64,000 nucleotides of DNA from Myxococcota bacterium (GCA_034005005.1 JAVEVO010000002.1:4389-68388); one strand, 5' to 3'. Counted from the stretch's first letter, positions 1,484 through 50,359 are shown. Notes: generated from the letters alone by a model not told the origin. Translations and numbers: made by a program.

Positions 1484-1502
1484 GCTCCGACCACCGCATC
1501 CG

Positions 1503-1540
1503 GCACGGGGGCAGCGTCCGCGAGGGTCCTGCCCCCGTGC
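1503..1540. terminator. Bidirectional hairpin between the convergent ferredoxin and lipase genes
   Basis: Perfect 12-bp inverted repeat: gcacgggggcag (1503-1514), a 14-nt loop, then ctgcccccgtgc (1529-1540), followed by tcgttctt. It lies between stop codons at 1483 and 1556. Confidence 0.55.
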
Positions 1541-1555
1541 TCGTTCTTGGCGTCG

Positions 1556-2818: not shown

Positions 2819-2856
2819 GGGCCCAGCATAGCAGCTCCGGGGGCGTGGAGGCCAGG

Positions 2857-19858: not shown

Positions 19859-21139
19859 TCAGCCGCAGCCGCCGACGACCTTGGCCCGGGCCTGGATCGT
19901 GACCTTGCGGGGGTAGGTGTGGGTGGGCCAGACCGGGGGGGCATTGACCGGATCGACGCCCGGCATGCCGCAGAAGTAGGGCAGCACTTCCTTGCACGCG
20001 CAGTCGGGATGCGCCGCGTAGGCCCGCTGCCCGACCGCCCGGCGGAAGCGGTAGCCGAACTCTTCGTTCCCGGAGTCTTTTTCGGCAAGACAGGTCGAGG
20101 GCGGGTACTTGGCCAGCCAATTCGCGTAGCCGCCCTCGATGATGTAGAGGTTGCCCACCCCCGCGGCGCTGAGGGTCTTGAACAGCCCGACCGCCGCCGC
20201 CTCGCCCCGGCCGATGAGCAGCACCGCGGTGCTCGCCTCCTGGGCCTTCAGCTTCTGGAGGAGGGCCGGCGCGAGGGGCCGATCGGGATCGACGCGCAGG
20301 GCGCCGTAGAGATGGAAGACGTTGTACTCCCGCTCAGACCGCACATCCAGGACGATGGTACTAACGCCACCCTGCTTGCGGAGGTCGGTCAGCTCGGCCG
20401 GATGGATGAAGACGGAGCGGTCGGCCAGCCTCTGCTCCGTGGCCGCCGCGATCCACTGCCAGCGATCCGCGAGATCGGGCTGCCCGAGCACGGCGACGAG
20501 CAGGGCGACGCCGAACAAGGCGCCGCCACCGATCCGGACGAGACGGGGTACGGGCCCCCGCACGACGCCGAAGCGCCGCTCCGCGAGCTCGGCCAGGGCG
20601 AACGCCCCCACGGCCATGCCCACCAGCCCGAGCAGCACGACGCCGGCGTCGACGCCGAAGAGGTCCATGAGGGTGAAGCGGCCGAGGTGGCTGCTGTGAT
20701 AGAAATCCTCGAAGTTACCGACAGTTTCGCCAAAGAGCAGGGTCCCCAGCCCGACCCCGACGAGGAAGACCATCCCGTCGATCTTCAGGGTGCTGGCCGC
20801 GACGAGGCTGGTCCCCGGGCAGAAGCCGCCGATGATGAAGCCGACGCCCCCGATCAACCCGCCGACGATGCCGGGCCAGAGGTAGGTCGGGTTGACGAAG
20901 ACCCGATCGAAGTCGAGCAGCTCCAGGCTGCAGGCGAGGAAGATCAGGAGGCTGGCGACGACGATACCCGTGAACATGACCTTGAGCACGGTCATCTCGT
21001 GCAGGTAGAACTGCGCGGCCAGCTTCCGGCTGTCGCCGAAGCCCGAGAGCTCCAGCACCACGCCGAAGCCCAGCCCGATCGCGAAGAAGATCAGGAACTG
21101 GGCGAAGCCGCCGAGCACGTGGACGTCGAAGGGAGCCAT
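19859..21139 (-). CDS. YeeE/YedE-family sulfur-compound transporter domain fused to C-terminal rhodanese domain
   Basis: Sulf_transp-like N-terminus (…GGVGFIIGGFCPGTS…) and rhodanese-like C-terminus (…TIVLDVRSEREYNVFHLYGALRV…). AGGAGG RBS upstream of ATG 21139. Confidence 0.8.
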   Translation of the reverse strand: MAPFDVHVLGGFAQFLIFFAIGLGFGVVLELSGFGDSRKLAAQFYLHEMTVLKVMFTGIVVASLLIFLACSLELLDFDRVFVNPTYLWPGIVGGLIGGVGFIIGGFCPGTSLVAASTLKIDGMVFLVGVGLGTLLFGETVGNFEDFYHSSHLGRFTLMDLFGVDAGVVLLGLVGMAVGAFALAELAERRFGVVRGPVPRLVRIGGGALFGVALLVAVLGQPDLADRWQWIAAATEQRLADRSVFIHPAELTDLRKQGGVSTIVLDVRSEREYNVFHLYGALRVDPDRPLAPALLQKLKAQEASTAVLLIGRGEAAAVGLFKTLSAAGVGNLYIIEGGYANWLAKYPPSTCLAEKDSGNEEFGYRFRRAVGQRAYAAHPDCACKEVLPYFCGMPGVDPVNAPPVWPTHTYPRKVTIQARAKVVGGCG

Positions 21140-21149
21140 GGTCTCCTCC

Positions 21150-21677
21150 TCAGGTCCACTGCTTGCGCAGGGAGTAGGCCAGCAGGTACCCGCCGGCGAA
21201 CACCGCGAACATGAACGCGAAGCTACCGACCGAGAGCACCGCGCCGCCGCTGAGAGCCTGGCCCGAGGTGCAGCCCCGGGCGAGCCGGGCGCCGTAGCCC
21301 ATCAGGGCGCCGCCGACCAACGCGAGGAGGAGGCGGGTCCCGGCCTGGACCCGCGGGCCTCGCCGCAGCTCGAGCTTGAAGCGCCGGTTGAAGAGGCCGC
21401 TCAAGGCCCCGCCCAGCATGGTGCCGAAGAGCATGAAGACCGAGCTGTGATCGAAGGGGTTGCGGCTGCCGCCCGCGGTCTCCGCGAGGCCCGCGACCCG
21501 GTCGACGTGGTCCGGCGCGGCCAGGGCGACCAGACCCGACTGCACCCGGCTGATCGCGCCCGAGGCGCCCAGCCCGCCGCCCGTGACGAAGAAGGCTAGA
21601 AAGAGCACGACGCCCAGCAGACAGCCTCCCAGGTAGGGGTTCAGGTAGGGTCGCGGCCCCCTGGCGTCGTCAGACAT
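21150..21677 (-). CDS. YeeE/YedE-family membrane protein (second half-transporter)
   Basis: …YGARLARGCTSGQALSGGAVLS… is the Sulf_transp motif. ATG 21677 (MSDDARGP) with AGGAGG 6 nt upstream is preferred over the GTG at 21692. Confidence 0.75.
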   Translation of the reverse strand: MSDDARGPRPYLNPYLGGCLLGVVLFLAFFVTGGGLGASGAISRVQSGLVALAAPDHVDRVAGLAETAGGSRNPFDHSSVFMLFGTMLGGALSGLFNRRFKLELRRGPRVQAGTRLLLALVGGALMGYGARLARGCTSGQALSGGAVLSVGSFAFMFAVFAGGYLLAYSLRKQWT

Positions 21678-23907
21678 CACCGCCTCCTTCACCGGGCGCG
21701 GGCCCTTCGTCGAGGATGTCGTAGCCCGTGATCATCGCCCGCAGGTTGCTGCCGAGGGTGTGCCCGGTGGTGATCAGGTACAGGTGCGCCACCACGAAGG
21801 CCAGCAAGGCCCAGGAACCGAGGTTGTGCAAGGGTGCGATCAGGTACAGCCCGGGCAGGTCGACGGCCAGCCCCGGCTGGCGGCCGGTCAGCCAGATCAG
21901 GATCCCCGTGACCACCTGGAAGGGGATCAACACGTTGAGCAGCATCAGGTAGGTCACCTGCTGCAAGGGGTTGAGGTGGCGCTGCGGGGTGCGGGGCAGC
22001 GGATGGGGCGCGCCCACGAAGATGCCGTGGAGATAGAAACGGGCCTGGCTCAGGACATCCCGGAACAGGGTCGGCCCCCGCGGGATGAACTGCCGGATGT
22101 CGGTGGTGACGAGGTGGTAGAACAGGCTGAGCACCGCATTGACGATCAGCACCAGGGCGAGGGCGTTGTGCAGCCGCACCGCGTGGGCGAACCCGAGCAA
22201 CGGGAAGCAGTCGACGAAGTGCACCTCGAGGCCCGTGAGGAGCAACAGCACGATGCTCGCCGCCATCAACCAGTGCCACAGCCGCTGGTAGCGGGTGTAC
22301 AGGTAGACCTGCCGGTTGGGCCCGTGAGTTGCCGGACGACGTCGCCGGGTCACGAAGCGCACCAGGCCGTGCACGAAGATGCCGGCGAAGGCGAGGAGGA
22401 ACAGGCCGAAGCCGGTCCGATCGGACCAGCCCTCCCGGCTGTGCCCGAAGATGTAGACCGTCGCCGTGGCCGGCGGCTCGTAGACCAGCTCACGGGCTGG
22501 ACCTGGCAGCAGACGCCCCCCGGCGAGGGGCCCCGTGGAGGGGAGCTCCAAGCGCAGACCCGGAGGGAGGGCCCCGACCAGGGGGATGGGCAGCGCCAGG
22601 CGGCCCTGCTCCCCGTGGCAGCGACCGCAGGCCATGGTCGCGCCGGCCCGCTCCTGGGTGCCATGGTGCAGGCCGTGGGCCTCGACGCTGCCAGTCAGCC
22701 GCGGCTGCGTGACCCCCTGCTGCCGGAGCAAGTCTGCGACCAGCGCGACCTTGGCCTCCGTGTCGAGGTGCTGCTCCGGCGCGGCCAGGCGCCCGTCGTG
22801 ATCGGTGTCGAGCTGGGCCAGGAGTGCAGGCTTGTAGCGCCCGCGCTCCAGCAGGGCCGCGGCGAGGGTCGTCAACGGCACGTCCCCGCCGCTGGCCGCA
22901 TCCTGCCAGCCGAGCAGCGTGACCAGGTTGAAGGGCCGCCAGCGAGGATCCCCGCCATGGGCCGAAGGGACGGGGAGCAAGGCGGGCGAGAAGGGCGAGG
23001 TGAGGCGGACGTTGGGGGAGACGCCCGGGTCCAGGGGCTGGTTGTGATAGGTCACCAGCGCACTGCCGGTCTCCATGACCAAGGTCGCATCGATCACCGC
23101 AACCGTAGGACCAAAGCTCTCGGGGGCATGGCAGGTCGAGCAGGCGACCCGCTCGAAGTGACGCTTGGGGTAGGGCAGCTCGGGGTGGACGGCCAGGGGC
23201 TCGTGGCAGCTCGTGCAGGGGGCGGCGCCGAGCCGGTGGTCGGGCCGCACCAGGTAGCTGCCGAGGCTCACCTGACGGGGATCCCGCTTCAGATGCGGTA
23301 GGCCGGCCCCCGGACGTGAGCGGGCCGGGTGGTTGGCCGACCGGTGGCAGTCGGTGCAGGTGAGCAAGCGGGCCGCGTGGATGTCGAAGGGCCGGTCGAG
23401 GCCATCCTTGCCCACCAGGTTGAGGTGGCTGGCGGCCATCTGCTGGGAGGAATAGACCACGCCGCTGGCCTTGGTCAGCGAGTGGTGGTCCTCGATGAGG
23501 GCCGTCGGCGTCCAGTCGTAGTCCTCGGGGAGTGCGAGGGGCCAGGGATCGGTGTGCACCAGGCCGTGACAGCGACCACAGCGGCTCGTGGTGGGTGCGG
23601 AGAGGTCGATCTCTTCCCGCACGAGCCGCCCTTGCTCGTCGAGCTGCTTTTCGCCGATGTCCCAGGGCTGGTCACGGTGGCAGACGGAGCACTCGAGACC
23701 AGGATGGCTGTTGTGTTGCTCGATGTACGCGACGTCGTGGCACTGGCTGCAGGTCGCGGCCTCCGAGAAGACCCCGCCCTGCTCGAGGAGGGACCCGCCC
23801 TCCTCGTTGCGCGCCACGAAGGTGGGGTGCAGGGGGTTGGGCGCGGCGAGGGCCAACGACGGCAGCAGCCAGAGGAGGAGCAGAGGAAACGGGCCACGCA
23901 CGCTCAT
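21670..23907 (-). CDS. CbcL-like fusion: periplasmic multiheme c-type cytochrome (7+ CxxCH) plus C-terminal diheme cytochrome b (HydC/FdnI-like) membrane domain
   Basis: Signal peptide MSVRGPFPLLLLWLLPSLALA. CxxCH motifs: CSQCH, CSVCH, CGRCH, CTDCH, CTSCH, CSTCH, CGRCH. C-terminal cytochrome b (PF01292-like) helices with conserved His (…YTRYQRLWHWLMAASIVLLLLTGLEVHF…APLHNLGSWALLAFVVAHLYLI…). Confidence 0.8.
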   Translation of the reverse strand: MSVRGPFPLLLLWLLPSLALAAPNPLHPTFVARNEEGGSLLEQGGVFSEAATCSQCHDVAYIEQHNSHPGLECSVCHRDQPWDIGEKQLDEQGRLVREEIDLSAPTTSRCGRCHGLVHTDPWPLALPEDYDWTPTALIEDHHSLTKASGVVYSSQQMAASHLNLVGKDGLDRPFDIHAARLLTCTDCHRSANHPARSRPGAGLPHLKRDPRQVSLGSYLVRPDHRLGAAPCTSCHEPLAVHPELPYPKRHFERVACSTCHAPESFGPTVAVIDATLVMETGSALVTYHNQPLDPGVSPNVRLTSPFSPALLPVPSAHGGDPRWRPFNLVTLLGWQDAASGGDVPLTTLAAALLERGRYKPALLAQLDTDHDGRLAAPEQHLDTEAKVALVADLLRQQGVTQPRLTGSVEAHGLHHGTQERAGATMACGRCHGEQGRLALPIPLVGALPPGLRLELPSTGPLAGGRLLPGPARELVYEPPATATVYIFGHSREGWSDRTGFGLFLLAFAGIFVHGLVRFVTRRRRPATHGPNRQVYLYTRYQRLWHWLMAASIVLLLLTGLEVHFVDCFPLLGFAHAVRLHNALALVLIVNAVLSLFYHLVTTDIRQFIPRGPTLFRDVLSQARFYLHGIFVGAPHPLPRTPQRHLNPLQQVTYLMLLNVLIPFQVVTGILIWLTGRQPGLAVDLPGLYLIAPLHNLGSWALLAFVVAHLYLITTGHTLGSNLRAMITGYDILDEGPAPGEGGGDV

Positions 23908-25322
23908 CGTCTGCCTCCGACCCCGGCCGGGTCCGCGTCGTAGCCGAGGGCCGCCCAGTCCAGCCGGCCGCCAGCACCATGGCAATCGGCGCAGGCGAGG
24001 GCCTGCCCGGCCTGGCGCACCAGGTGGTTGAGGGGCCAGTACATCGCGGTGGCGACGAAGCCGTACTGCCCGCTGTACGCGAGGCCGGCCTGCTGGGCCC
24101 CCTGGCGGAGCGCGCCGTCCCAGTCGAAGGTCGTCCAGTACCCGGTCGGCCCGGTGGTCTGCGGGGTGAGCAGGTGCTCGTGCTGGAGGTCGTAGGGCTG
24201 CTTGCCGCGGTGCACCTTGAAGGGATAGATCTTCGATTTCTTGTCGCCTTTGGCGCCGAGGGGCGGATTCAGCTCAGTCGTCCTCGCGGGATCGACGGGG
24301 TCACCAGCGAGGTATCGCCCCGTGCGACCATCCCACCAGCGGTACTCGGGGACCAGGCTCTGGCCGTAAACGAACGCGCCCTTCTTCTTCTGGTACTGGT
24401 GTTCGTCCTGGGGACGCGTGCCGTCGCCGGCCTGGCTCCAGTCCCAGGCGAGCTTGGTCGGGGCGAGGTGCGCGTGGGTGGGGATGTGGCAGGTCGGGCA
24501 GGCCACCGCGGCGAGGTGGGTGTCGAGCCGGGCGTCCTGGTGCCGGTGACGCTGGTGGCAATCCTCGCACGCGAGGCTGTGGGCACGGTCGACGCTCACC
24601 GCGATGGAGCGGCCCCGGAGCGCGTGCTCCCGGCCGCCGTGGCAGTCGATGCAGAGCATCCCCTGCAGCCCCATGTGCACATCGTCCTTGGCCTGGGGAG
24701 TGGTCAGCCCCGTGTTCAGGTCACCGTGCTTCACGCCCATGCCCCCGCCGCCGAAGAAGTGGCAGACACCGCAGTTGTCGAGGCGGGGGTAGCCGACCGA
24801 GCGGGCCACAGCCCGCAGATCGGTCCCGGGGACGGGCAGCCCGGCGTCACCCTTGAGGTAGCTGCCGGACCAGTCGTGGCAGACCAGGCAGTCGACGTTC
24901 TCCTCCCTGGTGAAATCATAGCGACCGTCCCGCCAGCCGTAGCCCGCGTGGCACTTGGTGCACATCGTCTCGTTGCTGGTGATGCCGATGCAGAAGTTGT
25001 TGATCAGGTTGCGCTTGCCCACGGCGTGGATGCCGGTGCGGCCCGGGATCTCTGCTGGCGGGGCCAGCCAGGTGAAGTGGGTGCTCCCCAGCAGTTGCCG
25101 GCCGGCGTTCGGGTGGCAGCGCAGGCAGGCCCGGGTCACCTCGGGCCCCTCCTGAAACGGCTGGTCGAAGAAGGAGGAATGGTCGAGGTGGGCGCGATGC
25201 CCGGGGGTCGGGGGACGGGAGGAGGCCGTTGGCCGCCAGAGCCCCCATCCGGCCAGCAAGAGGCCCCCGGCCGCGACGAGCGCGAGCAGGGAGAGCAAGA
25301 GTCGCTTTTTCGTCAACGCCAC
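23904..25322 (-). CDS. Octaheme c-type cytochrome, tetrathionate-reductase (OTR) family-like
   Basis: Signal peptide and eight CxxCH motifs (CLRCH, CTKCH, CLVCH, CGVCH, CIDCH, CEDCH, CPTCH, CADCH). GTG start at 25322. ATGA overlap with the downstream CbcL-like gene. Confidence 0.7.
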   Translation of the reverse strand: MALTKKRLLLSLLALVAAGGLLLAGWGLWRPTASSRPPTPGHRAHLDHSSFFDQPFQEGPEVTRACLRCHPNAGRQLLGSTHFTWLAPPAEIPGRTGIHAVGKRNLINNFCIGITSNETMCTKCHAGYGWRDGRYDFTREENVDCLVCHDWSGSYLKGDAGLPVPGTDLRAVARSVGYPRLDNCGVCHFFGGGGMGVKHGDLNTGLTTPQAKDDVHMGLQGMLCIDCHGGREHALRGRSIAVSVDRAHSLACEDCHQRHRHQDARLDTHLAAVACPTCHIPTHAHLAPTKLAWDWSQAGDGTRPQDEHQYQKKKGAFVYGQSLVPEYRWWDGRTGRYLAGDPVDPARTTELNPPLGAKGDKKSKIYPFKVHRGKQPYDLQHEHLLTPQTTGPTGYWTTFDWDGALRQGAQQAGLAYSGQYGFVATAMYWPLNHLVRQAGQALACADCHGAGGRLDWAALGYDADPAGVGGRR

Positions 25323-25381
25323 CTCCGGGGGGCGAATTGTCGTCTACGCTCGACCCGGAAGGCGATAGCAGACCGCACAGC

Positions 25382-29841: not shown

Positions 29842-32800
29842 ATGAGAATCCGCACGCTTTTCCATCCGCTGGTCCGGATCCTGTTGGTCCTGGCCCTGAG
29901 CTTGTCCGCCCTGCCCGGGTGCGGCGGTGAGGCCGACCCAGGCGAGGGCGAGGGCGAGGGCGAGGGCGAGGGCGAGGGCGAGGGCGAGGGTGAGGGCGAA
30001 GGGGAGGGCGAGGGAGAAGGCGAGGGAGAGGGTGAAGGAGAGGGTGCTCCGCCCTGCGTGCCCTGCCCGCCGGGAGCCTCGTATCCTTGCCCCGAGCCCT
30101 GTCCCGGCGGCGCGGGCGGGGTGATGCGCTGCGAGCAGCAGCCGAGCGGCCAATACTGCTGGGCCGCGGCCTGTGACTGCGCCGGGTGCACCGTCGGTCA
30201 GACCATGGCCTGCACCTGCGGCGCCGACCCCGGCGTGCAGAACTGCACCAAGTCGGGCACCTGGGGCTCCTGCATGAAGGACTGCGCCTTGCCCAACCCC
30301 GATGGCGGGCTCGACCTGCCGGGCAAGGCCTTCTGCACCCCGCTCGGCACCTGGAGCGAGTGCACCAGCGGCTGCCCCGAGACCGAGTGCTCCGCGGGAC
30401 AGGTCGCCGACCCGGACTTCGGTTGCGGGTGCTTCGACGCGTATCGCGAGAACATCGACTGCACCAACACGGGCCTGGCGCCCGGTGCAGCCCAGGCCTT
30501 CGGCATCCGCGTCTACCAGAACGGCGCCTGGCGCTGGCAGAACTGCCAGCCACGTTCGTGCCTCAGCGGCTACACCCTCCAGGGGGCGGAGTGCGTCCAG
30601 TGCCAGACCGCGGACCAGTGCGGCCCCGGTGAGGATCTCATCGGTTGCCTCTGCCAGGCCGTGGATTGCCCCCCCGACGAGCTGATCTGCCAGTGCGAGG
30701 CCGACGTCTGCATCAGCGCCAGTTGCGGCCCCGAGTTCTGCCTGCCGGCCAACGGCTGCGAGGCGAAGAACCCCGCCGAGTTCGAGGCGAGCTGCTCGGG
30801 GGGGCCGGTCGAGGAAGAGAAGTGCACGATCTGCCACACCGGCCTCGAGAAGGCCCACGTGCCCTTCCTGAGCTGCGTGGAGTGCCACGGCGGTGACGCG
30901 AGCACGGTCAACGTGCTCCAGGCCCACGTCGCCAAGCCGGCCGCCATGGCCAGCACCTGGAACTCCACCGACCCGGTCACCGGGACATACTTCAACTACC
31001 TGACCCACGTCGGCCTCGAGGACGAGCGGTTCGACGACCCGGCGACGCCCTCGATCCACGAGGGTCTGGCCTGGTTGAAGTTCTCCAACCCGGCCGACCT
31101 GCGGGTGGGCGGCCAGACCTGCGGCAAGGAAGGCTGCCACACGACGATCCTCGGCGCGGTGACCAAGAGCGTCATGGGGACCTCGGCCGGCGTGATCGGC
31201 GGCGCCCACTACGCGCTGGGCCTCGGCCGCCGGGTGAACGGGCTGCCCATCGACACCGAGGCCGCCCGGCTCGCCAGCGTCGCCGCCCGGACCACCCCCC
31301 TGCTCGACGAGGGGATGGTCTCCGAGCCCAACTTCCCCACGGGCACCGCCCGCGAGCTGGCCCCCTACCCCACCGCCGAGCTGCGTGACATCGGCGACAG
31401 CTCCGACGAGGGCCTGGCCGCGATGCTCGAGGACACCATCGACAAGGCCTGCGCCTCCTGCCACGTCGGCAGCAAGGGCGCCAACCGCCGGGCCGGCGAC
31501 TTCCGCTCCGCAGGCTGCTCGGCCTGCCACGTCCTGTACGAGGACGACGGCGTCAGCCGCTCCGCGGACGCCAGCATCCTCAAGACCGAGCCGTACTACG
31601 ACCCCTCCAACCCCGGGGTCGCGGACGCCTACACCGACATCATGCTCAAGCCCGGGCAGCGGCCCCACCCCTACCAGCACCGGCTGACCCGCAAGCTGCC
31701 GTCGCGCCACTGCGCGCACTGCCACAACGAGTCCAACTGGACGGTGATGCAGTTCAAGGGGCAGCGGCCCGATCCCAACGGCGACCTGCAGGCCACCTTC
31801 GGCTGCCAGGAAGGCGGCAACGAGGACAAGTGCCGCTACGACAACTCCCTCGTCGGGGAGAAGCGCCGCCACGGCCTGAAGTACCACCAGATCATCGACT
31901 ACGAGGACCTCAACGGGGACGGGGTCGACGACACCCCCGCGGACGTCCACTTCCTCGCGGGGCTCGACTGCATCGACTGCCACACCCCCACCGAGATGCA
32001 CGGCGACGGCCGCATCCACAGCCGGATGGACCAGGCCACCGAGATCCGCTGCGCCTCCTGCCACGGCACCATCGACAGCTACATCGACCCGGCCCAGTCG
32101 CCGATCCCCAACCTCGTGCGCCAGGGCACCGAGGCCCGCCCCTCCTTCTACCTCAAGTCGAAGATCACCGGGCGGCTGCACTACATCTACCAGGTCAAGG
32201 ACTCGGCCATGGACGTCTCCCCCGGCGCCCGTGACCCCCGCACCGGCGAGCGCGTCTACGCCCGCAACGCCAGCCTCGCACACGGCCGCTGGAACGGTGC
32301 GGAGAACGTCGACGACGGCATCGGGATCAAGTCCCTCGACGCCAGCGCGCCCGACGGGGAGACCACCCGCGACGGCTTCAGCCACGCGGACACCCTGGAG
32401 TGCAACACCTGCCACGCGACCTGGGGCAACATGTGCTACGGCTGCCACCTGACCCTGTCGGACTACGATCCCACGGGCAACGAGCCCCTGTCCGACTTCT
32501 CCAACGTCAGCGGGCTGCTCTCCCCCGGCAAGGTGGTCCAGAAGGACGTGACCTTCGTCTCGATGCTCGACATCCAGCTCGGCGTGAACAGCCGCGGCAA
32601 GGTGTCCCAGTTCACCCCGGGCGGCAAGGTCTTCTTCCGCCACATCACCCACCCCCAGGGTGCCGACGATTTCCAGGGCTCCACGGGCGCGTCCTACCGC
32701 ACCTTCAACGACCGACTGGGCTTCGGCAACCGTGTCGGCGCGGGCCTCGCCTCTCGCGACCCCGACCTCGGCGGGCTGTACAACAGCGACGTGCGGGCGG

Positions 32801-35800
32801 ACCAGAACGGCGCCCTGTCGTTCAACCCGGTGGTCTCCCACACGGTGCAGCGCAAGCCCCGCAACTGCACCCAGTGCCACATCCCGGTCGGCCACACCGC
32901 GACCCCGGCGACGGACCCCTACGCCCGCCAGGCCATGGTGACCTGGGGCGTGGTCCCCGGCGGCGCCTCGCCCGAGACCTCGGCCTTCCTCGCCGAGGTG
33001 CCCCTGACCACCCAGCGGGACTCGGGCAGCACCTTCTCCACCAGCGCCGGCTTCCTGATCCCGGACATGGTGGGTAGCGACGTCGAGGGCAACCCGGCCA
33101 ACACCTTCACCTCCTCGCCGAGCGCGCTCCCCGGCACCACCGCCGGCGACACGGCTGCGCACCGCCTGGACTGGGTCGTGCTCGAGGACGGCTTCCCCCT
33201 GTCCAGCACCTCCCGGCCGCGCCACGAGCCCCCCGGCCCCCTGGCCCGCTTCGGCGCGCCGGGCGGCGGGGCCGGGCCCCTGGCCGCGGAGACCCTGGCC
33301 AAGCTGAAGGACAAGGTGCGGGTCTACGACTTCGCGGAGTTCACCCGGACCGGCAACCTGCTGGCGCCGATCTTCTATCAGGCCGACGTCGACGACAAGG
33401 ACGGCGACGGTTACTGCCCCGCGGGGATCGACGGCAACGGCGACGGCGACTGCTCCGACACGGGAGAGGCAGGCGGCACCGGCCCCTTCGACTGCGACGA
33501 CACCTCGGCCGACGTCAACCCCGACGCGGACGAGGACTGCGCCGACACCATCGACAACAACTGCAACGGGCTCGTCGACGCGCAGGACGGCTCCTGCGAG
33601 GGCGGGCTCGACGGCGACGGGGACGGCTGGTGCCCCGCGGGCCAGGACACCAACGGCGACGGGGACTGCATCGATCCGGGCGAGTCCGACGCCTCCGGTC
33701 CCTTCGACTGCAACGACGAGGACCCGACCCTGAACCCGGCCAAGAGCGAGGACTGCTTCAACGGCAAGGACGACAACTGCAACGCCCGCATCGACGCGGC
33801 CGACCCCGAGTGCTCGAACTACGCGGACAAGGACAAGGACGGGTACTGCCCCGCGGGCAAGGACAACAACGGCGACGGTGACTGCACCGACGAAGGCGAG
33901 CGGCCCGAGGGCGGCCCGGTGGACTGCGACGATGCGACCAAGACCACCGCGCCGGGCGCGACCGAGATCTGCGACAACGGCATCGACGACAACTGCGACC
34001 TGCGCAAGGACTGCGGCTCGGGCTGCGCCGGCTGCCCGGACAGCTCCACCTGCGGGGTGGCCGCGGACTGCCAGAGCGGCGTGTGCAAGGAGGGCCGCTG
34101 CGAGGTGCCCGCCTGCAACGACACCGTGCGCAACGGCAAGGAGACCGACGTCGACTGCGGCGGCGGCATCTGCCCCGCGTGTGCGGACACCAAGGCCTGC
34201 ACCCTGGCCAGCGATTGCACCAGCCTCGTCTGCACCGGCAACATCTGCCGGGCGCCGGCCTGCAACGACACGGTGAAGAACGGCACCGAGAGCGACATCG
34301 ACTGCGGCCCGGGCTGCAGCAAGTGCGCGGACTTCCTCCGCTGCACCGCGGCGGCGGACTGCGTCTCCGGCGTCTGCACCGCGAACCAGTGCAAGGCCCC
34401 CTCCTGCACCGACCGGGTGCTCAACGGCGAGGAGACGGCCATCGACTGCGGCGGCACCTGCACCAAGTGCCGCGACAACCAGGCCTGCGCCTCCGACCTC
34501 GACTGCGTCTCCGGGGTCTGCATCGGCGCGGTGTGTCAGGCCGCGACCTGCACCGACGGCGTGCACAACGGCACCGAGACCGACGAGGACTGCGGCGGGA
34601 GCTGCCGCAACACCGCGAAGTGCGAGGACTACCTGAAGTGCACGGTCCACGCGGACTGCGTCAGCGGCGTCTGCACCCAGAACCTCTGCCAGGCGCCGAG
34701 CTGCACCGACCGGGTGAAGAACGGCGACGAGACCGCCTTGGACTGCGGCGGCTCGTGCGATCCCTGCGCAGACCGGGCGACCTGCTCCATCGGCTTCGAC
34801 TGCGAGAGCGGCGTCTGCTCCGGCGGGACCTGCCAGGTGCCGACCTGCGAGGACGGCGTGAAGAACGGGGACGAGGCCGACCGCGACTGCGGCGCGGTCT
34901 GCCCCAACCAGTGCGCCACGCAGAAGACTTGCGTCATCGGCGACGACTGCGTCAGCGGCGTCTGCGAGAACAAGCGCTGCCAGCCGGCCGCCTGCGACGA
35001 TGGGGAGCAGAACGGCAACGAGACCGACACCGACTGCGGCGGCGACTGCCGCCCCTGCGACACCAACGGGAGCTGCAAGCTCGCCCGGGATTGCGCCAGC
35101 GGCGTCTGCAAGCAGCTCGTCTGCAAGGCCGCGGCCTGCAACGACGAGGTCCAGAACGGCCTGGAGACCGACGTCGACTGCGGCGGGCTCTGCGATCGCT
35201 GCGCCGACAACAAGACCTGCGCGGTCGGCACCGACTGCGCGAGCGGCGTGTGCGCGGGCAGCATCTGCCGCAAGGCGACCTGCGAGGACCGCGTGAAGAA
35301 CGGCGACGAGACCGACGTCGACTGCGGCGGCGGTTGCCCCCTGGATTGTGCGGTCGACAAGGGCTGCCTGAGCGGCGACGACTGCCTCAGCAAGGTCTGC
35401 ACCGGGCTGAAGTGCGTCGCGGCGACCTGCGCGGACGGCACCAAGAACGGCACCGAGACCGACAAGGACTGCGGCGGCGGCTGCCAGGCCAAGTGTGCGC
35501 CGGAGCAGGGCTGCACGGTCGGCGGGGACTGCACCACCGGCGTCTGCCTCGCGGGGGTGTGCCAGATCGCCAAGTGCGACGACCTCGTGAAGAACGGCCA
35601 GGAGACCGACATCGACTGCGGCGGCGGCTGCGCGGCGAAGTGCGCGGACGGCAAGGGCTGCGGCCTCGGCAGCGACTGCTACAACAAGGTCTGCACCGAC
35701 AAGATCTGCCGCGAGCCGGCCTGCAACGACTTCGTGCAGAACGGCAACGAGGCGGCCGTGGACTGCGGCGGCTCCTGCCCCACCCGCTGCGCGGACCTCT

Positions 35801-38800
35801 CCACCTGCCGGGCCGCGGGCGACTGCGCGAGCGGCGTCTGCACCGGCGGGACCTGCGCCGTGCCCACCTGCAGCGACAAGGTGAAGAACGGCAACGAGAC
35901 CGACGTCGACTGCGGCGGCCCCTGCGGACCCTGTGCGGACGGGCGGAGCTGCGCCTTCGCCGCCGACTGCCTCAACAAGATCTGCCAGGGCAGCATCTGC
36001 CGGGCCGCCCAGTGCGGTGACGGTCAGCTCAACGGCGACGAGACCGGCCTGGACTGCGGCGGCTCCTGCGTCGCCGACTGCGCGGACGGGCTGGGCTGCA
36101 AGGCCCCGGGCGACTGCCAGAGCGGCGTCTGCACGAACTCGCTGTGCGTCGCGGCCAACTGCGACGACAAGGTGAAGAACGGCCTCGAGACCGACGTCGA
36201 CTGCGGCGGCCCCTGCGCCCCCTGTGCGGACGGCAAGCGCTGCACCCTCGGGACCCACTGCACCAGCAAGGTCTGCACCGGCGGCTTCTGCCAGGTGCCG
36301 TCCTGCGAAGACAGCGTCAAGAACGGCAGCGAGACCGACATCAACTGCGGCGGCTCCTGCCCCAAGTGCCCGGACACCAAGACCTGCCTGCTGGGCACCG
36401 ACTGCGTCAGCAAGGTCTGCGATGGCACCTGCCAGGCGCCGACTTGCAGCGACAACCAGACCAACGGCACCGAGACCGATCTCAACTGCGGTGGGTCCTG
36501 CCCCGACTGCCCGGACGGTAAGGCCTGCAAGCTGGGCAGCGACTGCGTCAGCACCGTCTGCTCGGGCGGGGTCTGCGCGCAGGGGAGCTGCGCCGACGGC
36601 TCCAAGAACCCCGGCGAGACCGACATCGACTGCGGCGGCGGCACCTGCGGGCCCTGCGCGGACACCAAGAGCTGCCTGGTGGCCACGGACTGCCTCAGCG
36701 GGGTGTGCGACGGCGTCACCAAGAAGTGCCTGGCGCCGGCCTGCAACGACGGGGTCAAGAACGGCGCCGAGACTGACATCGACTGCGGCAGCAACTGCAA
36801 CGACTGCCTCGACGGCAAGCTCTGCTCCCTGGCCGGCGACTGCGCAAGCGGCGTCTGCGCCGGCGGCAAGTGCCAGGTCCCGACCTGCATCGACGGCGTC
36901 AAGAACGGCCTCGAGACGGACCGCGACTGCGGCGGCACCTGCGGCAAGTGCGACGACACCAAGGTCTGCAGCGTCCCGGCCGACTGCGCCAGCGGCGTCT
37001 GCACCAACAAGGTCTGCGTCGCGCCGAGCTGCACCGACGGCGTGAAGAACGGCCTCGAGACCGACCTCAACTGCGGCGGCGGGGTCTGCGGCAAGTGCGC
37101 CAACGACCTGAGCTGCCTCGCAGCCAGCGACTGCCTCAGCGGCGTCTGCGCCGGCGGCAAGTGCCAGGCGCCGGCCTGCACCGACGGCATCAAGAACGGC
37201 AGCGAGACCGACGTCGACTGCGGCGGCCCCTGCAGCAAGTGTGCGGACACGAAGACCTGCGAGATCCCTGCGGACTGCACGAGCGGCGTCTGCACCACCA
37301 AGGTCTGCCGCGCCCCGGTCTGCAACGACTCGGTGCTCAACGGCAACGAGTCCGACGTCGACTGCGGCGGCTCCTGCCCGAACAAGTGCGGCAACACCCT
37401 CACCTGCCGCGCCGCGGCCGACTGCGTCAGCGGCGTGTGCACGGGCGGCAAGTGCCAGGCGCCGCTCTGCACCGACAACGTCAAGAACGGGACCGAGACC
37501 GACGTCGACTGCGGCAGCAACTGCAGCGACTGCAGCGACGGCAAGGCCTGCTCCCTGGCCAGCGACTGCCTCAGCAACGTCTGCGTCAACAACATCTGCC
37601 AGTCCAGCGGCTGCAACGACAACGCCAAGAACGGCAACGAGACCGACGTCGACTGCGGCGGCTCCTGCTCCCCCTGCCTGCCGCCCAAGCACTGCCTGAT
37701 CCCCGCGGACTGCTCGAGCAAGGTCTGCCTCGACACGGTCTGCCAGGCTCCGGCCTGCAACGACGGGGTCAAGAACGGCACCGAGACCGACCGGGACTGC
37801 GGCGGTAACTGTGGGCCCTGTGGCGATCAGAAGACCTGCAACGTCCCGGCAGACTGCACCAGCAAGGTCTGCACCAACAACGTCTGCCAGGCGCCGGCCT
37901 GCGACGACACCGTGAAGAACGGCAGCGAGACCGACACCGACTGCGGCGGCTCGTGCAAGGCCTGTGCGGACACCAAGGCCTGCTCCGTGGCCGCGGACTG
38001 CCTCAGCAAGGTCTGCACGACCAACGTCTGCCGCGCGCCGGCCTGCAACGACACGGTGCTCAACGGCAGCGAGTCCGACGTCGACTGCGGCGGCACCTGC
38101 AACGACTGCGTGGTAGGCAACCGCTGCAACACCGGGGCCGACTGCGTCACCGGCGCGTGCGTCGATGGCCGCTGCCAGTCCGCAGGCTGCACCGACGGCG
38201 TGAAGAACGGCAGCGAGACCGACATCGACTGCGGCGGCGGCTGCGAGCCCTGCGTCAACGGCAAGGTCTGCACCCTCCCCACCGACTGCGCGAGCCTCGT
38301 CTGCACCGCGAACACCTGCCGGGCCGCGACCTGCAGCGACACGGTGCGCAACAGCGACGAGACCGACGTCGACTGCGGCGGGTCCTGCCTCGCGGACTGC
38401 GCGGACGGCAAGGCCTGCAAGACGGGCGGCGACTGCACCAGCGGCGTCTGCAACAACCTGCGCTGCGCGGCCCCGTCGTGCTCCGACGGGCTGAAGAACG
38501 GCAACGAGACCGACGTCGACTGCGGCGGCCCGTGCAACAAGTGTGCGGACACCCTGTCCTGCAGCTCGGCCACGGACTGCCAGAGCGGCGTCTGCGCCAG
38601 CGGCAAGTGCCAGGCCCCGACCTGCAGCGACAAGGTCAAGAACGGCCTGGAGACCGACGTCGACTGCGGCGGCGGCACCTGCAACAAGTGCATCACGGAC
38701 AAGGCCTGCACCAAGGCCCTGGACTGCGTCAGCGGCGTCTGCAACAGCAACATCTGCCGGGCCCCGACCTGCAGCGACGGTGTGCAGAACGCGGCCGAGA

Positions 38801-39831
38801 CCGACATCGACTGCGGCGGCGGCACCTGCAACAAGTGCGCGGACAACAAGAAGTGCAGCATCCCCACGGACTGCCAGAGCAGCGTCTGCACCAACGCGCT
38901 CTGCAAGCCTGCGCTCTGCACCGATTCCGTACTGAACGGCGCCGAGACCGACGTCGACTGCGGCGGTGGAACCTGCACGGCCTGCGCTGCCAACAAGAAA
39001 TGCAAGGTAGACAGCGACTGCCTGCAGGGTGTGTGCAACAACGGGATCTGCCTGCCGACACGAACCATCAAAGCCACAAACGGTATCCGGTGGTGGTCTG
39101 ACAACACCTATGCAACCACTTGCCTTGGCTATCGTCGGCCTCTGGACAGCAACTACACTTATGTTGGCGATACGGGCAACGGTGTCTACAGGTTGCGCAC
39201 ATCCAGCAACCCGATTGACGTCTACTGCGACATGACCACCGACGGCGGCGGCTGGACCTTCATCGGCTACTACAAGGACGGCGCTTCCGACTCACCGCCG
39301 GGATGGCACAACGACGAGTACATCTACTTCATGAACGCCCGGGACAACAAGTTCTACGGGCGTGACACCAACCTGGCCAACCCGAACTCGCCAGGAGCCT
39401 GGATGGATTGGCGGGTGCTCGAGATGATCACCTGGCCAATCGAGTATGCAATCATCCTCGACCAGAACAGCTACTCGGCTGGCTGGGAGAATCATCAGGC
39501 AAAGGTCATCTACCGAGTCAAGAACCGGAACATCATGCCGGATTACGGTCAGTCTCAGGACCTGAACAGCGGAGACAACCTGTGGTACAAGTTCCGCCCC
39601 TGGGACAACTGGACCGACGTCGGCAGCTCTTCAGCTTCGGGCTGGTATTATTGGTATCCTTACTCGGCCGGAAATGCCTACCTGATCCTCTTCCACTGCG
39701 ACAACTACCCACTGTGTGGGCATGGCGGTGGTAGCAACTACAATTATTGGAACTACTACGGAACTGGCGTGCCTGGCGGCAACAACTCGTGGTACCACAC
39801 GAGTCGCCAGCTCGTCCGCGAGATCCGCTAG
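29842..39831 (+). CDS. Giant (3329-aa) mosaic lipoprotein: (GE)17 linker, Cys-rich region, multiheme cytochrome c domain (10 CxxCH plus one CX4CH), 3 MopE-like Cys/Asp motifs, about 34 tandem 48-aa 8-Cys repeats, C-terminal fibrinogen-related domain
   Basis: Signal peptide and lipobox MRIRTLFHPLVRILLVLALSLSALPGCGG. Heme motifs CTICH, CVECH, CASCH, CSACH, CAHCH, CIDCH, CASCH, CNTCH, CYGCH, CTQCH, plus TCGKEGCH. MopE-like DGDGYCPAG…DCDD…PGA.E.CDNGIDDNC motifs. Repeats have the form C.D.V.NG.ETD.DCGG.C..C.....C....DC.SGVC....C. The C-terminus reads …IDVYCDMTTDGGGWTFIGYY…, the fibrinogen beta/gamma globular-domain signature. Confidence 0.85.
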   Translation: MRIRTLFHPLVRILLVLALSLSALPGCGGEADPGEGEGEGEGEGEGEGEGEGEGEGEGEGEGEGEGEGAPPCVPCPPGASYPCPEPCPGGAGGVMRCEQQPSGQYCWAAACDCAGCTVGQTMACTCGADPGVQNCTKSGTWGSCMKDCALPNPDGGLDLPGKAFCTPLGTWSECTSGCPETECSAGQVADPDFGCGCFDAYRENIDCTNTGLAPGAAQAFGIRVYQNGAWRWQNCQPRSCLSGYTLQGAECVQCQTADQCGPGEDLIGCLCQAVDCPPDELICQCEADVCISASCGPEFCLPANGCEAKNPAEFEASCSGGPVEEEKCTICHTGLEKAHVPFLSCVECHGGDASTVNVLQAHVAKPAAMASTWNSTDPVTGTYFNYLTHVGLEDERFDDPATPSIHEGLAWLKFSNPADLRVGGQTCGKEGCHTTILGAVTKSVMGTSAGVIGGAHYALGLGRRVNGLPIDTEAARLASVAARTTPLLDEGMVSEPNFPTGTARELAPYPTAELRDIGDSSDEGLAAMLEDTIDKACASCHVGSKGANRRAGDFRSAGCSACHVLYEDDGVSRSADASILKTEPYYDPSNPGVADAYTDIMLKPGQRPHPYQHRLTRKLPSRHCAHCHNESNWTVMQFKGQRPDPNGDLQATFGCQEGGNEDKCRYDNSLVGEKRRHGLKYHQIIDYEDLNGDGVDDTPADVHFLAGLDCIDCHTPTEMHGDGRIHSRMDQATEIRCASCHGTIDSYIDPAQSPIPNLVRQGTEARPSFYLKSKITGRLHYIYQVKDSAMDVSPGARDPRTGERVYARNASLAHGRWNGAENVDDGIGIKSLDASAPDGETTRDGFSHADTLECNTCHATWGNMCYGCHLTLSDYDPTGNEPLSDFSNVSGLLSPGKVVQKDVTFVSMLDIQLGVNSRGKVSQFTPGGKVFFRHITHPQGADDFQGSTGASYRTFNDRLGFGNRVGAGLASRDPDLGGLYNSDVRADQNGALSFNPVVSHTVQRKPRNCTQCHIPVGHTATPATDPYARQAMVTWGVVPGGASPETSAFLAEVPLTTQRDSGSTFSTSAGFLIPDMVGSDVEGNPANTFTSSPSALPGTTAGDTAAHRLDWVVLEDGFPLSSTSRPRHEPPGPLARFGAPGGGAGPLAAETLAKLKDKVRVYDFAEFTRTGNLLAPIFYQADVDDKDGDGYCPAGIDGNGDGDCSDTGEAGGTGPFDCDDTSADVNPDADEDCADTIDNNCNGLVDAQDGSCEGGLDGDGDGWCPAGQDTNGDGDCIDPGESDASGPFDCNDEDPTLNPAKSEDCFNGKDDNCNARIDAADPECSNYADKDKDGYCPAGKDNNGDGDCTDEGERPEGGPVDCDDATKTTAPGATEICDNGIDDNCDLRKDCGSGCAGCPDSSTCGVAADCQSGVCKEGRCEVPACNDTVRNGKETDVDCGGGICPACADTKACTLASDCTSLVCTGNICRAPACNDTVKNGTESDIDCGPGCSKCADFLRCTAAADCVSGVCTANQCKAPSCTDRVLNGEETAIDCGGTCTKCRDNQACASDLDCVSGVCIGAVCQAATCTDGVHNGTETDEDCGGSCRNTAKCEDYLKCTVHADCVSGVCTQNLCQAPSCTDRVKNGDETALDCGGSCDPCADRATCSIGFDCESGVCSGGTCQVPTCEDGVKNGDEADRDCGAVCPNQCATQKTCVIGDDCVSGVCENKRCQPAACDDGEQNGNETDTDCGGDCRPCDTNGSCKLARDCASGVCKQLVCKAAACNDEVQNGLETDVDCGGLCDRCADNKTCAVGTDCASGVCAGSICRKATCEDRVKNGDETDVDCGGGCPLDCAVDKGCLSGDDCLSKVCTGLKCVAATCADGTKNGTETDKDCGGGCQAKCAPEQGCTVGGDCTTGVCLAGVCQIAKCDDLVKNGQETDIDCGGGCAAKCADGKGCGLGSDCYNKVCTDKICREPACNDFVQNGNEAAVDCGGSCPTRCADLSTCRAAGDCASGVCTGGTCAVPTCSDKVKNGNETDVDCGGPCGPCADGRSCAFAADCLNKICQGSICRAAQCGDGQLNGDETGLDCGGSCVADCADGLGCKAPGDCQSGVCTNSLCVAANCDDKVKNGLETDVDCGGPCAPCADGKRCTLGTHCTSKVCTGGFCQVPSCEDSVKNGSETDINCGGSCPKCPDTKTCLLGTDCVSKVCDGTCQAPTCSDNQTNGTETDLNCGGSCPDCPDGKACKLGSDCVSTVCSGGVCAQGSCADGSKNPGETDIDCGGGTCGPCADTKSCLVATDCLSGVCDGVTKKCLAPACNDGVKNGAETDIDCGSNCNDCLDGKLCSLAGDCASGVCAGGKCQVPTCIDGVKNGLETDRDCGGTCGKCDDTKVCSVPADCASGVCTNKVCVAPSCTDGVKNGLETDLNCGGGVCGKCANDLSCLAASDCLSGVCAGGKCQAPACTDGIKNGSETDVDCGGPCSKCADTKTCEIPADCTSGVCTTKVCRAPVCNDSVLNGNESDVDCGGSCPNKCGNTLTCRAAADCVSGVCTGGKCQAPLCTDNVKNGTETDVDCGSNCSDCSDGKACSLASDCLSNVCVNNICQSSGCNDNAKNGNETDVDCGGSCSPCLPPKHCLIPADCSSKVCLDTVCQAPACNDGVKNGTETDRDCGGNCGPCGDQKTCNVPADCTSKVCTNNVCQAPACDDTVKNGSETDTDCGGSCKACADTKACSVAADCLSKVCTTNVCRAPACNDTVLNGSESDVDCGGTCNDCVVGNRCNTGADCVTGACVDGRCQSAGCTDGVKNGSETDIDCGGGCEPCVNGKVCTLPTDCASLVCTANTCRAATCSDTVRNSDETDVDCGGSCLADCADGKACKTGGDCTSGVCNNLRCAAPSCSDGLKNGNETDVDCGGPCNKCADTLSCSSATDCQSGVCASGKCQAPTCSDKVKNGLETDVDCGGGTCNKCITDKACTKALDCVSGVCNSNICRAPTCSDGVQNAAETDIDCGGGTCNKCADNKKCSIPTDCQSSVCTNALCKPALCTDSVLNGAETDVDCGGGTCTACAANKKCKVDSDCLQGVCNNGICLPTRTIKATNGIRWWSDNTYATTCLGYRRPLDSNYTYVGDTGNGVYRLRTSSNPIDVYCDMTTDGGGWTFIGYYKDGASDSPPGWHNDEYIYFMNARDNKFYGRDTNLANPNSPGAWMDWRVLEMITWPIEYAIILDQNSYSAGWENHQAKVIYRVKNRNIMPDYGQSQDLNSGDNLWYKFRPWDNWTDVGSSSASGWYYWYPYSAGNAYLILFHCDNYPLCGHGGGSNYNYWNYYGTGVPGGNNSWYHTSRQLVREIR
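29941..30042 (+). repeat. In-frame (GGCGAG)n-type hexanucleotide microsatellite encoding (Gly-Glu)17
   Basis: Eight perfect ggcgag units followed by degenerate ggtgag/ggcgaa/ggggag/ggagaa units. It encodes GEGEGE…. Confidence 0.9.
34015..39054 (+). repeat. About 34 tandem copies of a roughly 147-bp coding repeat (48-aa 8-Cys module)
   Basis: Periodic NG.ETD.DCGG and DC.SGVC codon blocks recur every 140-150 bp. This periodicity generates the long spurious out-of-frame and antisense ORFs in the track. Confidence 0.85.
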
Positions 39832-46933: not shown

Positions 46934-47047
46934 CCCCGCCCGGCCGCCGAGGGCTCCACCCTCCCGACCACGCCGGCCAGCTCCCCCCGGACACGGTTGC
47001 TCCCCACCGCCGGCTCGTCGGCCGCAGGGTGGGTGCTCAGGAGAACG

Positions 47048-50000: not shown

Positions 50001-50359
50001 GGACCGGCGCGGCCGCCCTGCTCGGCCGCGAGCTGTACTCCCAGTTCACGGTGCTGCTGTTCACCCCGGGGAGCCGGCCCCTGAACGCCTCCGACGACAA
50101 GATCCTCAGGGATCTCAAGGCATTGGGATTCCAGGTGGTCGACGATCGCTCGGGCGGCGGCGGCTCCAACGAGGAGTCCAACGTCAAGGTCGGGCGCGGG
50201 TTCGGCCAGGTGGGCAACATCGTCCGCCGGGTGGCCCAGCGCTGCTACGACCAGCCCTTCCCCCTGCTCGAGGCCTTCGAGCCCGGCGACACCGACATCT
50301 ACATCAACCTGGGTGCGGACGCGGACCGCAAGACGCGCTGCGGCAAGACCCGGCTGTAG
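47048..50359 (+). CDS. Secreted PEGA-domain protein (3 PEGA domains) followed by six roughly 90-aa repeats of unknown function
   Basis: RBS then ATG 47048, with a signal peptide. PEGA motifs (LSTEPAGADVYLDGELRGKAPL; VTSVPVGAQVEIGGQARGVTPL; FSSVPAKAKVFVDERERGTTPL). Repeats have consensus …FTP..RP….D..LL..L…GF………GGGSN….NIKVG.G……RCYDQPFP…LFE.GD.DI..NLG. Confidence 0.7.
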   Translation: MTPTCRRAPGNHRGSRIPPGSAGLCWLLLSFAGAAPVLAEEAPRPLLLAPCDSRETALQGQAQPYSQQLEAALHATGRFAAATGGSPTAAAGPAPACPAARLDRACWVRQGTLAGAQRLVTSELWGEPPACMVTVHLLELPGGRVLRKVQDTYNCRIEDLLARVEHHGRQLADLPPLPGATTHRGVTLARSPATPAAGPTLQLSTEPAGADVYLDGELRGKAPLTLSGLAPGEHSLVLVREGYADLVKGLLLPATGTVTVQERLVAATGGVKVTSVPVGAQVEIGGQARGVTPLTVRGLAAGTQVVRLLLAGHPPWESRVEVKAGALIEVVGRLGGKDGKVIFSSVPAKAKVFVDERERGTTPLTLALPPGSHRVRFEKDGHGPQERELLLQPGEARSLSVTLARQATPAAGVVAGHELTLFTPEARAFDARDERFLREAEALGFKLDRRHYPSNPEGNIKVARGNRALAERVQALVRKHHGKELEIRETFSEGDRDVFVNLGSDTPTEDLLSAVTGPVVPKAAPNGFEVTLFTPDKRPRSPADDRLLSELEAAGFRIDRGSYASNPDANVKVPQGKRTLGEQVLQVVRRYYQGDFPILEVFGETETDVFINLGQAVPVLDDAAVEDEAATDEDDRQPNVVVFTPGARPFNDADRRLLETLRGLGLSVQETPGGGGSNPESSIKVATGRAFVGERIRPLLQRCYDQPFPVKELFEPGSDDVFVNLGEQAAPLPGCTMPALAAEATQPPASRHRVVVFTPGARPFTEADRTLLTELRTGGFEVQERPGGGGSNEDPNIKVGKGKLALGIRVQEVARGCYDQPFQVKELFDEDDTDIYLNLGARADERVRCGSPPGPGEQTVVDPRDGPRGAPPRAIDPTRYRIRFFTPDSRPLGDGELELQERLRRMGFRVEQEPLAASDRPNIKVGSDQIAAGERVQRTITELLGRELELKPAFNAGDGDIFVTFGGEGEEELEPDRGALPEEVGTGAAALLGRELYSQFTVLLFTPGSRPLNASDDKILRDLKALGFQVVDDRSGGGGSNEESNVKVGRGFGQVGNIVRRVAQRCYDQPFPLLEAFEPGDTDIYINLGADADRKTRCGKTRL

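Follow-up and report, generated by a model that had tools for sequence, protein, structure and literature searches.

The question raised by the locus described here is whether a multihaem cytochrome module with long distances between its haem motifs works as an enzyme or as an electron relay, and whether a CX4CH sequence lying among its canonical CxxCH motifs belongs to the haem set. The module is encoded in a 64,000-nucleotide (nt) stretch of DNA from a Myxococcota bacterium (GCA_034005005.1, JAVEVO010000002.1:4389-68388; this whole stretch is called the window hereafter), within an open reading frame (ORF) of 3,329 amino acids (aa) whose product we refer to as the window protein. A first-pass annotation, made from the sequence alone, had listed ten CxxCH motifs plus the CX4CH site, and had read the long spacers as a hint of an enzyme-like fold, akin to that of hydroxylamine oxidoreductase (HAO) or octahaem tetrathionate reductase (OTR). 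We find that the module belongs, as a divergent member, to a large and functionally uncharacterised family of 10-12-haem cytochromes, whose sole named member is the Geobacter ExtM; that the CX4CH sequence aligns with the third haem site of this family; and that the module probably acts as an electron relay via six-coordinate haems, rather than by HAO/OTR-type catalysis, a reading to which we give a probability of about 0.6 from the pattern of conserved residues. The ORF, the module and its haem motifs, in window coordinates, are:

29842..39831, plus strand: complete ORF, 3,329 aa, with the ATG at 29842 and the stop codon at 39829-39831
30802..33387, plus strand: predicted undecahaem cytochrome c module, aa 321-1182, a divergent ExtM-like family member
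30823-30837, plus strand: haem 1, CTICH, aa 328-332
30874-30888, plus strand: haem 2, CVECH, aa 345-349
31120-31140, plus strand: haem 3, CGKEGCH (CX4CH), aa 427-433, within ...GGQTCGKEGCHTTILG...
31450-31464, plus strand: haem 4, CASCH, aa 537-541
31516-31530, plus strand: haem 5, CSACH, aa 559-563
31711-31725, plus strand: haem 6, CAHCH, aa 624-628
31969-31983, plus strand: haem 7, CIDCH, aa 710-714, forming with haem 8 a stretch that resembles NrfA haems 4-5
32050-32064, plus strand: haem 8, CASCH, aa 737-741
32401-32415, plus strand: haem 9, CNTCH, aa 854-858
32434-32448, plus strand: haem 10, CYGCH, aa 865-869, followed by a beta-sheet domain
32866-32880, plus strand: haem 11, CTQCH, aa 1009-1013

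The ten CxxCH motifs and CGKEGCH, as first listed, were all recovered in one frame of the ORF (30823-32880, plus strand), and far exceeded chance expectation, as 20,000 residue shuffles of aa 320-1180 yielded a mean of 0.024 and a maximum of 2 CxxCH versus the 10 observed. Twenty-two of the 24 cysteines of aa 320-1180 fall within the eleven motifs, while the remaining two, C655 and C664, lie in or beside a clade-specific insertion; no cysteine occurs between aa 1013 and 1191. The successive inter-motif spacings are 17, 82, 110, 22, 65, 86, 27, 117, 11 and 144 aa, so that the range of 40-150 aa given in the first-pass annotation describes the long spacers only and fails as a general rule, four spacings being of the short, paired-motif type (11-27 aa).

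Database searching with the window protein returned 113 homologues with E-values down to 3e-294, of which P0001 and P0002 (~1,150 aa) are 56% identical and the others 21-36% identical with lengths of 450-1,400 aa; an exact look-up of the 3,329-aa protein found no record, and the best match among the GTDB species-representative genomes is only 34% identical. The best curated match is the NCBIfam model ExtM (NF040943, E 2.2e-39, 135 bits in 6 stretches), with a score short of the equivalog cut-off of 800 bits. Compact relatives, each having 12 CxxCH, score 277-334 bits against the same profile, with the match of P0092 spanning positions 15-585 of 599. When the window protein is aligned with 25 such compact 12-haem members, its 11 haem sites all match 11 of their 12 in the same order, and the one missing is the family's twelfth, C-terminal site. 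By profile search the family comprises 753 clusters at E<=1e-30 and 2,324 at E<=1e-10, and at least 545 loci were found in GTDB species representatives, the hosts including Planctomycetota, Myxococcota (Sandaracinaceae), Gammaproteobacteria with two Shewanella species, Desulfobulbales, Methylomirabilota and others.

ExtM itself (GSU2935) is a predicted 12-haem, 68-kDa protein encoded in the extHIJKLMNOPQS cluster of Geobacter sulfurreducens and has no assigned function (PMC5877670); it sits beside ExtKL, newly described as the polysulfide reductase MccSep (bioRxiv 10.1101/2025.11.18.688581). The window protein is homologous to ExtM over the whole module with a like pattern of paired-motif spacing, and shares with the ExtM family both the F-x-N-P-x-D-L-R-V motif before haem 3 (by family consensus) and an ExtN-like C-terminal part with a beta domain. 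It differs from ExtM by loss of the twelfth haem and by CX4CH instead of CxxCH at haem 3, having ten CxxCH and one CX4CH where ExtM proper has twelve CxxCH, by the insertions described below, and by an added N-terminal Cys-rich domain and a 2,150-aa tail; nor does its gene lie within an extHIJKLMNOPQS-type cluster (porin, ExtKL/MccSep, ExtN, Rieske, cytochrome b). The beta-sheet domain, which follows haem 10 (aa ~864-935), matches positions 220-310 of the ExtN profile. On the family scale, the C-terminal third (haems 9-12 plus the beta-sheet domain; aa 847-942, nt ~32380-32667 in the window; P0030-P0042) is homologous to the C-terminal half of ExtN (NF040967, positions 217-390), and the NCBIfam 'ExtO' model NF040968 matches the ExtN-like stretch at nearly identical coordinates; in the structural model of the compact relative P0034, this domain contains a long hairpin.

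Relative to the compact ~600-aa relatives, the window module carries ~239 aa of insertions at twelve places, and its spacers are long because of these lineage-specific insertions into a scaffold shared with the compact members. The proposal that the spacers betray an HAO/OTR-like fold is not supported, and membership in the HAO, OTR, MccA and OmcA/MtrC families was rejected throughout by the comparisons given below. OmcA and MtrC have ~65-70 aa per haem, near the 78 of the window module, so that the premise of a spacing much longer than in MtrA/OmcA-type proteins is also off.

Whether the CX4CH sequence belongs to the haem set was then answered by its conservation in the homologues. The columns of C427, C432 and H433 are invariant in 86 of 86 aligned homologues, most of which have a canonical motif at this position, and the site is preceded by the conserved F-x-N-P-x-D-L-R-V motif. 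Site 3 reads CGxCH in the compact 12-haem ~600-aa proteins and in an 11-haem clade of ~920-aa proteins, CX4CH in the closest relatives P0001, P0002, P0004, P0005, P0007 and P0009, and CX5CH in P0006, P0008 and P0028. Loci from species-representative genomes gave 54 CxxCH and 6 CX4CH; among the best 148 cluster representatives at 50% identity, 75 had the anchor motif matched, and these comprised 44 canonical, 28 CX4CH and one each of CX3CH, CX5CH and CX6CH sites. A loop of 3-6 residues is hence present at site 3 in ~40% of the representative clusters and in at least three separate clades. As CX4CH-bearing Sandaracinaceae proteins score ~900 bits against the otherwise canonical 11-haem clade versus ~280 bits against the window protein, and so belong to that clade, the lengthening of site 3 arose more than once. 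The possibility raised at the outset, that homologues might lack the site, was not borne out, and CX3 to CX6 versions recur at exactly this position. The alignment thus shows CGKEGCH to be the invariant third haem site of the family, with a loop apparently grown from two to four residues, and, because the CX4CH is homologous to a conserved haem site, the module is read as an undecahaem cytochrome, in which CGKEGCH would bind its haem covalently. A 52-aa peptide around the CX4CH, when used as a search query, found zero matches.

Sites other than 3 read CxxCH wherever the motif is retained, except for site 1 in three relatives, where a longer loop was seen (CX3CH in P0008, CX4CH in P0028 and P0046). 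At haem site 10 (aa 865-869), 18 of 86 relatives have other residues, mostly Phe, in place of both cysteines, yet the histidine is kept in 85 of 86.

Comparison with known multihaem enzymes and surface cytochromes gave mainly local similarities. Pfam matches of the module are confined to generic multihaem models (PF14537, PF14522), and no HAO, NrfA or MtrC model of Pfam or NCBIfam matched the window protein at threshold. For HAO and hydrazine dehydrogenase (HDH), there was no match to PF13447, no entry among the listed profile-versus-PDB matches and no Foldseek match; for OTR, TIGR04315 did not match the window protein and 1SP3 was absent from the listed PDB sequence matches and the Foldseek matches, and the relative P0031 gave 26 bits to TIGR04315, locally, versus a cut-off of 375. 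With MtrC/OmcA/UndA and OmhA the window protein has in common a lipoprotein-type export signal, 10-11 haems and one or more beta-sheet domains interleaved with haem domains; yet PF22113 reached only E 0.34 and OmcA (4lmh) E 0.18, no Foldseek match to MtrC, OmcA or UndA was obtained, and neither OcwA nor OmhA was among the listed PDB matches. AlphaFold2 modelled the window module with a predicted local distance difference test score (pLDDT) of 77.8 and a predicted template modelling score (pTM) of 0.83, and P0034 with a pLDDT of 87.5 and a pTM of 0.84; Foldseek searches of the PDB with both models returned nothing at E<1, which we take to mean that no solved analogue was detected and not as proof of a new fold.

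The family profiles did match PDB sequences of NrfA (E 3e-8 and 1e-8) and MccA (E 5.6e-5 and 7e-7) locally, with weaker matches to MccSep, photosynthetic reaction-centre cytochromes, NrfB, cytochrome c554 and ONR. These alignments are local and centre on haems 7-8 (D-V-H-x-x-A-G-x-x-C-I-D-C-H ... C-x-x-C-H); with MccA there are three such stretches, and their order is not kept. By hhalign, the family aligned with Escherichia coli NrfA over 49 columns only, covering NrfA haems 4-5, at a probability of 89%, and phmmer of the module against PDB sequences found NrfA only (E 0.24). With the NrfA/ONR/MccA/HAO group (PMC9250108) the module thus shares a two-haem stretch, H-x(4-6)-C-x-x-C-H ... C-x-x-C-H, in which window haems 7-8 correspond to NrfA haems 4-5, and with MccA also a haem-motif-plus-helix similarity at window haem 3; it differs from the whole group in the lack of a global colinear alignment, of a catalytic-haem signature (CxxCK, CX15CH), of a family-model match and of Foldseek similarity. 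What the module has in common with these enzymes is, to judge from the profiles, a shared two-haem building block. A layout of three plus five haems equated with that of octahaem ONR/HAO was considered and dropped, as a colinear alignment was lacking.

The relay reading is favoured because there are enough conserved non-motif His/Met for every haem. In the close clade, H339, H362, M445, H609, H613, H677, H703, H720, H814, H848 and H1000 are conserved, and a further conserved His column, for which the query (ending at aa 1100) has a gap, was ascribed to H1128 by comparing the consensus with the full sequence, so that the window clade offers at least 12 candidate sixth ligands for 11 haems. At the H720 column every sequence has His or Met; the M445 column, downstream of haem 3, is Met or His in most of the family and pairs with the ligand His in CGECH...SRHAT, an MccA motif. 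Such counting is indicative only, as ligands shift between alignment columns across clades.

Several points weigh against this relay reading. Among the compact 12-haem proteins, the non-motif His/Met columns that occur in at least 80% of sequences number only 8 for 12 haems, and 6 of these occur in all; a protein sixth ligand could therefore be missing from some haems of the family, and some of the conserved histidines could serve catalysis instead of ligation. Homology to ExtN extends over the C-terminal part, and a cable-bacterial ExtN-like cytochrome has been grouped as potentially catalytic with an OTR match by Foldseek (PMC11976967); that paper describes ExtN and gives no coordination data for ExtM. 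The gene stands alone in the window and in Shewanella, whose copy is likewise an orphan. Autonomous enzymes are often encoded by stand-alone genes. The local NrfA and MccA similarities count on the same side, as do the facts that localisation and the role of the tail are deduced from sequence features, and that the family, though spanning hundreds of 50%-identity clusters, is without a solved structure, a tested function or any experiment for a member.

Several of these points support the strongest rival, in which the module would be a catalytic multihaem oxidoreductase, one five-coordinate haem (e.g. haem 4 or a haem of the ExtN-like C-terminal part) acting on a small N, S or Se compound and the others feeding electrons as in NrfA, OTR or MccA. 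Strongly conserved polar residues beside haem 3 (N416, P417, D419) and elsewhere (Y566, D576, D701) would suit it, as would an operon-like set of sulfur-transport, rhodanese and cytochrome genes 4.5 kb upstream. However, the motif scan of the window protein revealed no CxxCK, CX3CH or CX15CH, the last being the MccA-type haem 8 motif, nor any other special motif, and CxxCK is missing from the 85 relatives as well; no HAO, OTR or NrfA family model and no enzyme structure was matched, the enzyme similarity is limited to one two-haem stretch and is non-colinear for MccA, and the conserved His/Met of the window clade outnumber its haems. We therefore regard catalysis as possible but unlikely, and retain the six-coordinate electron relay as the preferred reading.

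The module is only one part of the 3,329-aa ORF, whose further features are:

29842..29922, plus strand: signal peptide with the lipobox-like end ...LSALPG-C27-GGE, read from the sequence and not by a signal-peptide predictor
29941..30044, plus strand: acidic (Gly-Glu)n linker, a 6-nt repeat in 17.3 copies
30043..30801, plus strand: N-terminal Cys-rich region, aa 68-320, with 36 Cys, between the Gly-Glu linker and the first haem
33388..34140, plus strand: Asp/Cys-rich region with three MopE-like putative metal-binding motifs (PF11617, E 1.8e-18)
34099..39051, plus strand: 34 tandem repeats of 48-49 aa with six Cys each, aa ~1420-3070
39052..39828, plus strand: C-terminal fibrinogen-related domain (PF00147, E 7.5e-7; NCBIfam GGGWT_bact, E 1.3e-11; tenascin/angiopoietin FReD, E ~1e-6)

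A GAGG ribosome-binding site lies upstream of the ATG at 29842, after a 208-bp spacer that is less G+C-rich. The CGGE following the lipobox-like signal is common to P0001 and P0002, and Cys27 would be the lipid anchor of an exported protein. The 36-Cys region had zero matches in Pfam or NCBIfam and is conserved in P0001. The 48-49-aa repeats, with the consensus C-x-D-x-x-x-N-G-x-E-T-D-[VI]-D-C-G-G-x-C-x-x-C-...-D-C-x-S-x-V-C-x-x-x-x-C, matched nothing in Pfam, NCBIfam or PDB sequences. A query that joined the last three repeats to the fibrinogen-like head matched more than 5,500 database proteins, the named ones being mostly from Myxococcota. Partner domains of this repeat type include formylglycine-generating-enzyme/sulfatase-modifying, CBM_3, plastocyanin-annotated and fibrinogen-like domains, and no cytochrome domain was found in the best 120 matches; the repeat has the look of a widespread stalk module of extracellular proteins, as yet undescribed. 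Some of these matches are mis-named 'tryptophan synthase alpha chain'. Among the examined matches, no other cytochrome family member exceeds ~1,700 aa, and the cytochrome-stalk-head fusion looks unique so far among the family members examined.

That assembly might have made the 3,329-aa ORF a chimaera, or that its fusion might be very recent and non-functional, with the real gene ending near nt 33387, was considered, because P0001 (1,147 aa) aligns with aa 14-1182, so that it ends, as does P0002, exactly at the junction where the cytochrome module ends, because no other family member among the matches examined is of such size, and because the repeats are a mobile module carried by thousands of proteins. 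Against this, the frame runs unbroken through the junction, where neither a stop nor a frame shift occurs, the G+C content at third codon positions (GC3) is 0.94 along the entire ORF and the G+C profile is uniform, which makes a chimaera quite improbable. A contig of the independent metagenome JGI 3300026178 (L087) is 99.5% identical and covers 30007-32747 only, short of the junction. It carries two single-base changes creating TAG stops and an NN/9-nt gap by which haem site 10 is partly lost, and its gene call is split (P0003); reading of these TAG stops as read-through or selenocysteine codons was rejected, as single-base differences together with an NN gap are most simply sequencing errors.

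The least probable alternative, in which CGKEGCH would carry no haem and its two cysteines would form a disulfide or metal site, leaving a decahaem, draws on the non-canonical motif and is opposed by the invariance of Cys, Cys and His in the homologues with a canonical CxxCH in most, by the region being modelled at pLDDT 91-95, and by CX4CH being an accepted haem-binding motif (PMC11492766) that is proven to bind haem in HDH (PMC6469936), and we consider it very improbable indeed.

Taken as a whole, the architecture would describe an exported protein, lipid-anchored at Cys27, in which the acidic Gly-Glu tether may hold the cytochrome module near the membrane, while the disulfide-rich stalk of 34 repeats (~1,650 aa) would reach outward and end in the fibrinogen-like binding head. 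The eleven haem sites keep the family's fixed order of close pairs with longer loops between, the loops having taken up ~240 extra residues in this lineage, with the twelfth haem lost. The overall architecture would point to a redox protein of the cell envelope or cell surface, attached to an external matrix or particle. The fusion of a cytochrome to a Myxococcota-type extracellular stalk and fibrinogen-like head hints, as a conjecture, at cytochrome display outside the cell; to our knowledge, Myxococcota is not a phylum usually linked to extracellular electron transfer.

HDH offers a precedent for the site itself, as it likewise has a four-residue loop between the cysteines of its third haem, which there is a solvent-exposed electron exit (PMC6469936), although homology between HDH/HAO and the window protein or its family is not detectable. 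By analogy with that exposed haem 3, the haem 3 loop might be an evolutionary tuning point, and haem 3 the solvent-exposed haem by which electrons enter or leave a multihaem fold of new structure, within a surface 'redox adhesin' with a lectin-like fibrinogen head, but we think this rather improbable. The C-G-x-x-G-C-H pattern of the window site also resembles CGTAGCH, which we take to be a site of Desulfovibrio cytochrome c3, and the class III cytochrome c3 model PF02085 remained sub-threshold for the window protein (E 0.0017). Unlike in these known CX4CH systems, the loop length of the window family varies from 2 to 6 residues and is not diagnostic, which supplies a natural series for the effect of loop length on haem attachment and properties. 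For annotation pipelines that count CxxCH alone, the haem count of the window protein is corrected to 11. The site 3 loop polymorphism and the adhesin-like fusion are the new details here, and they do not overturn current understanding.

As for the genomic setting, an Asp-Al_Ex transporter gene lies immediately upstream of the cytochrome gene, and downstream of it, on the other strand, is an operon for an Opp-type ABC transporter. The operon-like run upstream consists of four genes at 19859-25343 on the minus strand, ~4.5 kb from the ExtM-like gene, and is not ext-like:

19859-25343, minus strand, first gene of the run: octahaem cytochrome with a Cytochrome_cB domain (PF11783)
19859-25343, minus strand, second gene: heptahaem protein with a C-terminal cytochrome b561 (PF01292) membrane domain, of CbcL-like architecture
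19859-25343, minus strand, third and fourth genes: Sulf_transp (YeeE/YedE) proteins, the fourth also carrying a rhodanese domain

As a sulfur/selenium-linked set for electron transfer, the run brings to mind the Geobacter ext cluster that likewise combines rhodanese and cytochrome genes. Among the homologues no conserved neighbourhood was found, the contexts ranging from orphan genes to molybdopterin-oxidoreductase or cytochrome clusters. The gene of P0007, a close CX4CH relative in a Myxococcota metagenome-assembled genome (L083, JAKLJY010000059.1), adjoins a DHOR di-haem oxidoreductase and two cytochrome c proteins of ~950-995 aa, one with a hydrazine-synthase-alpha-like middle domain; the locus also encodes a 988-aa protein labelled PF28386 BfoA_C, and looking up 'BfoA' in the literature yielded nothing relevant. 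Two further large proteins of the window are unrelated to the cytochrome, namely a 1,225-aa protein with an eCIS_core domain (PF13699; 10409-14083, plus strand) and a 1,120-aa protein with three PEGA domains (46997-50356, plus strand).

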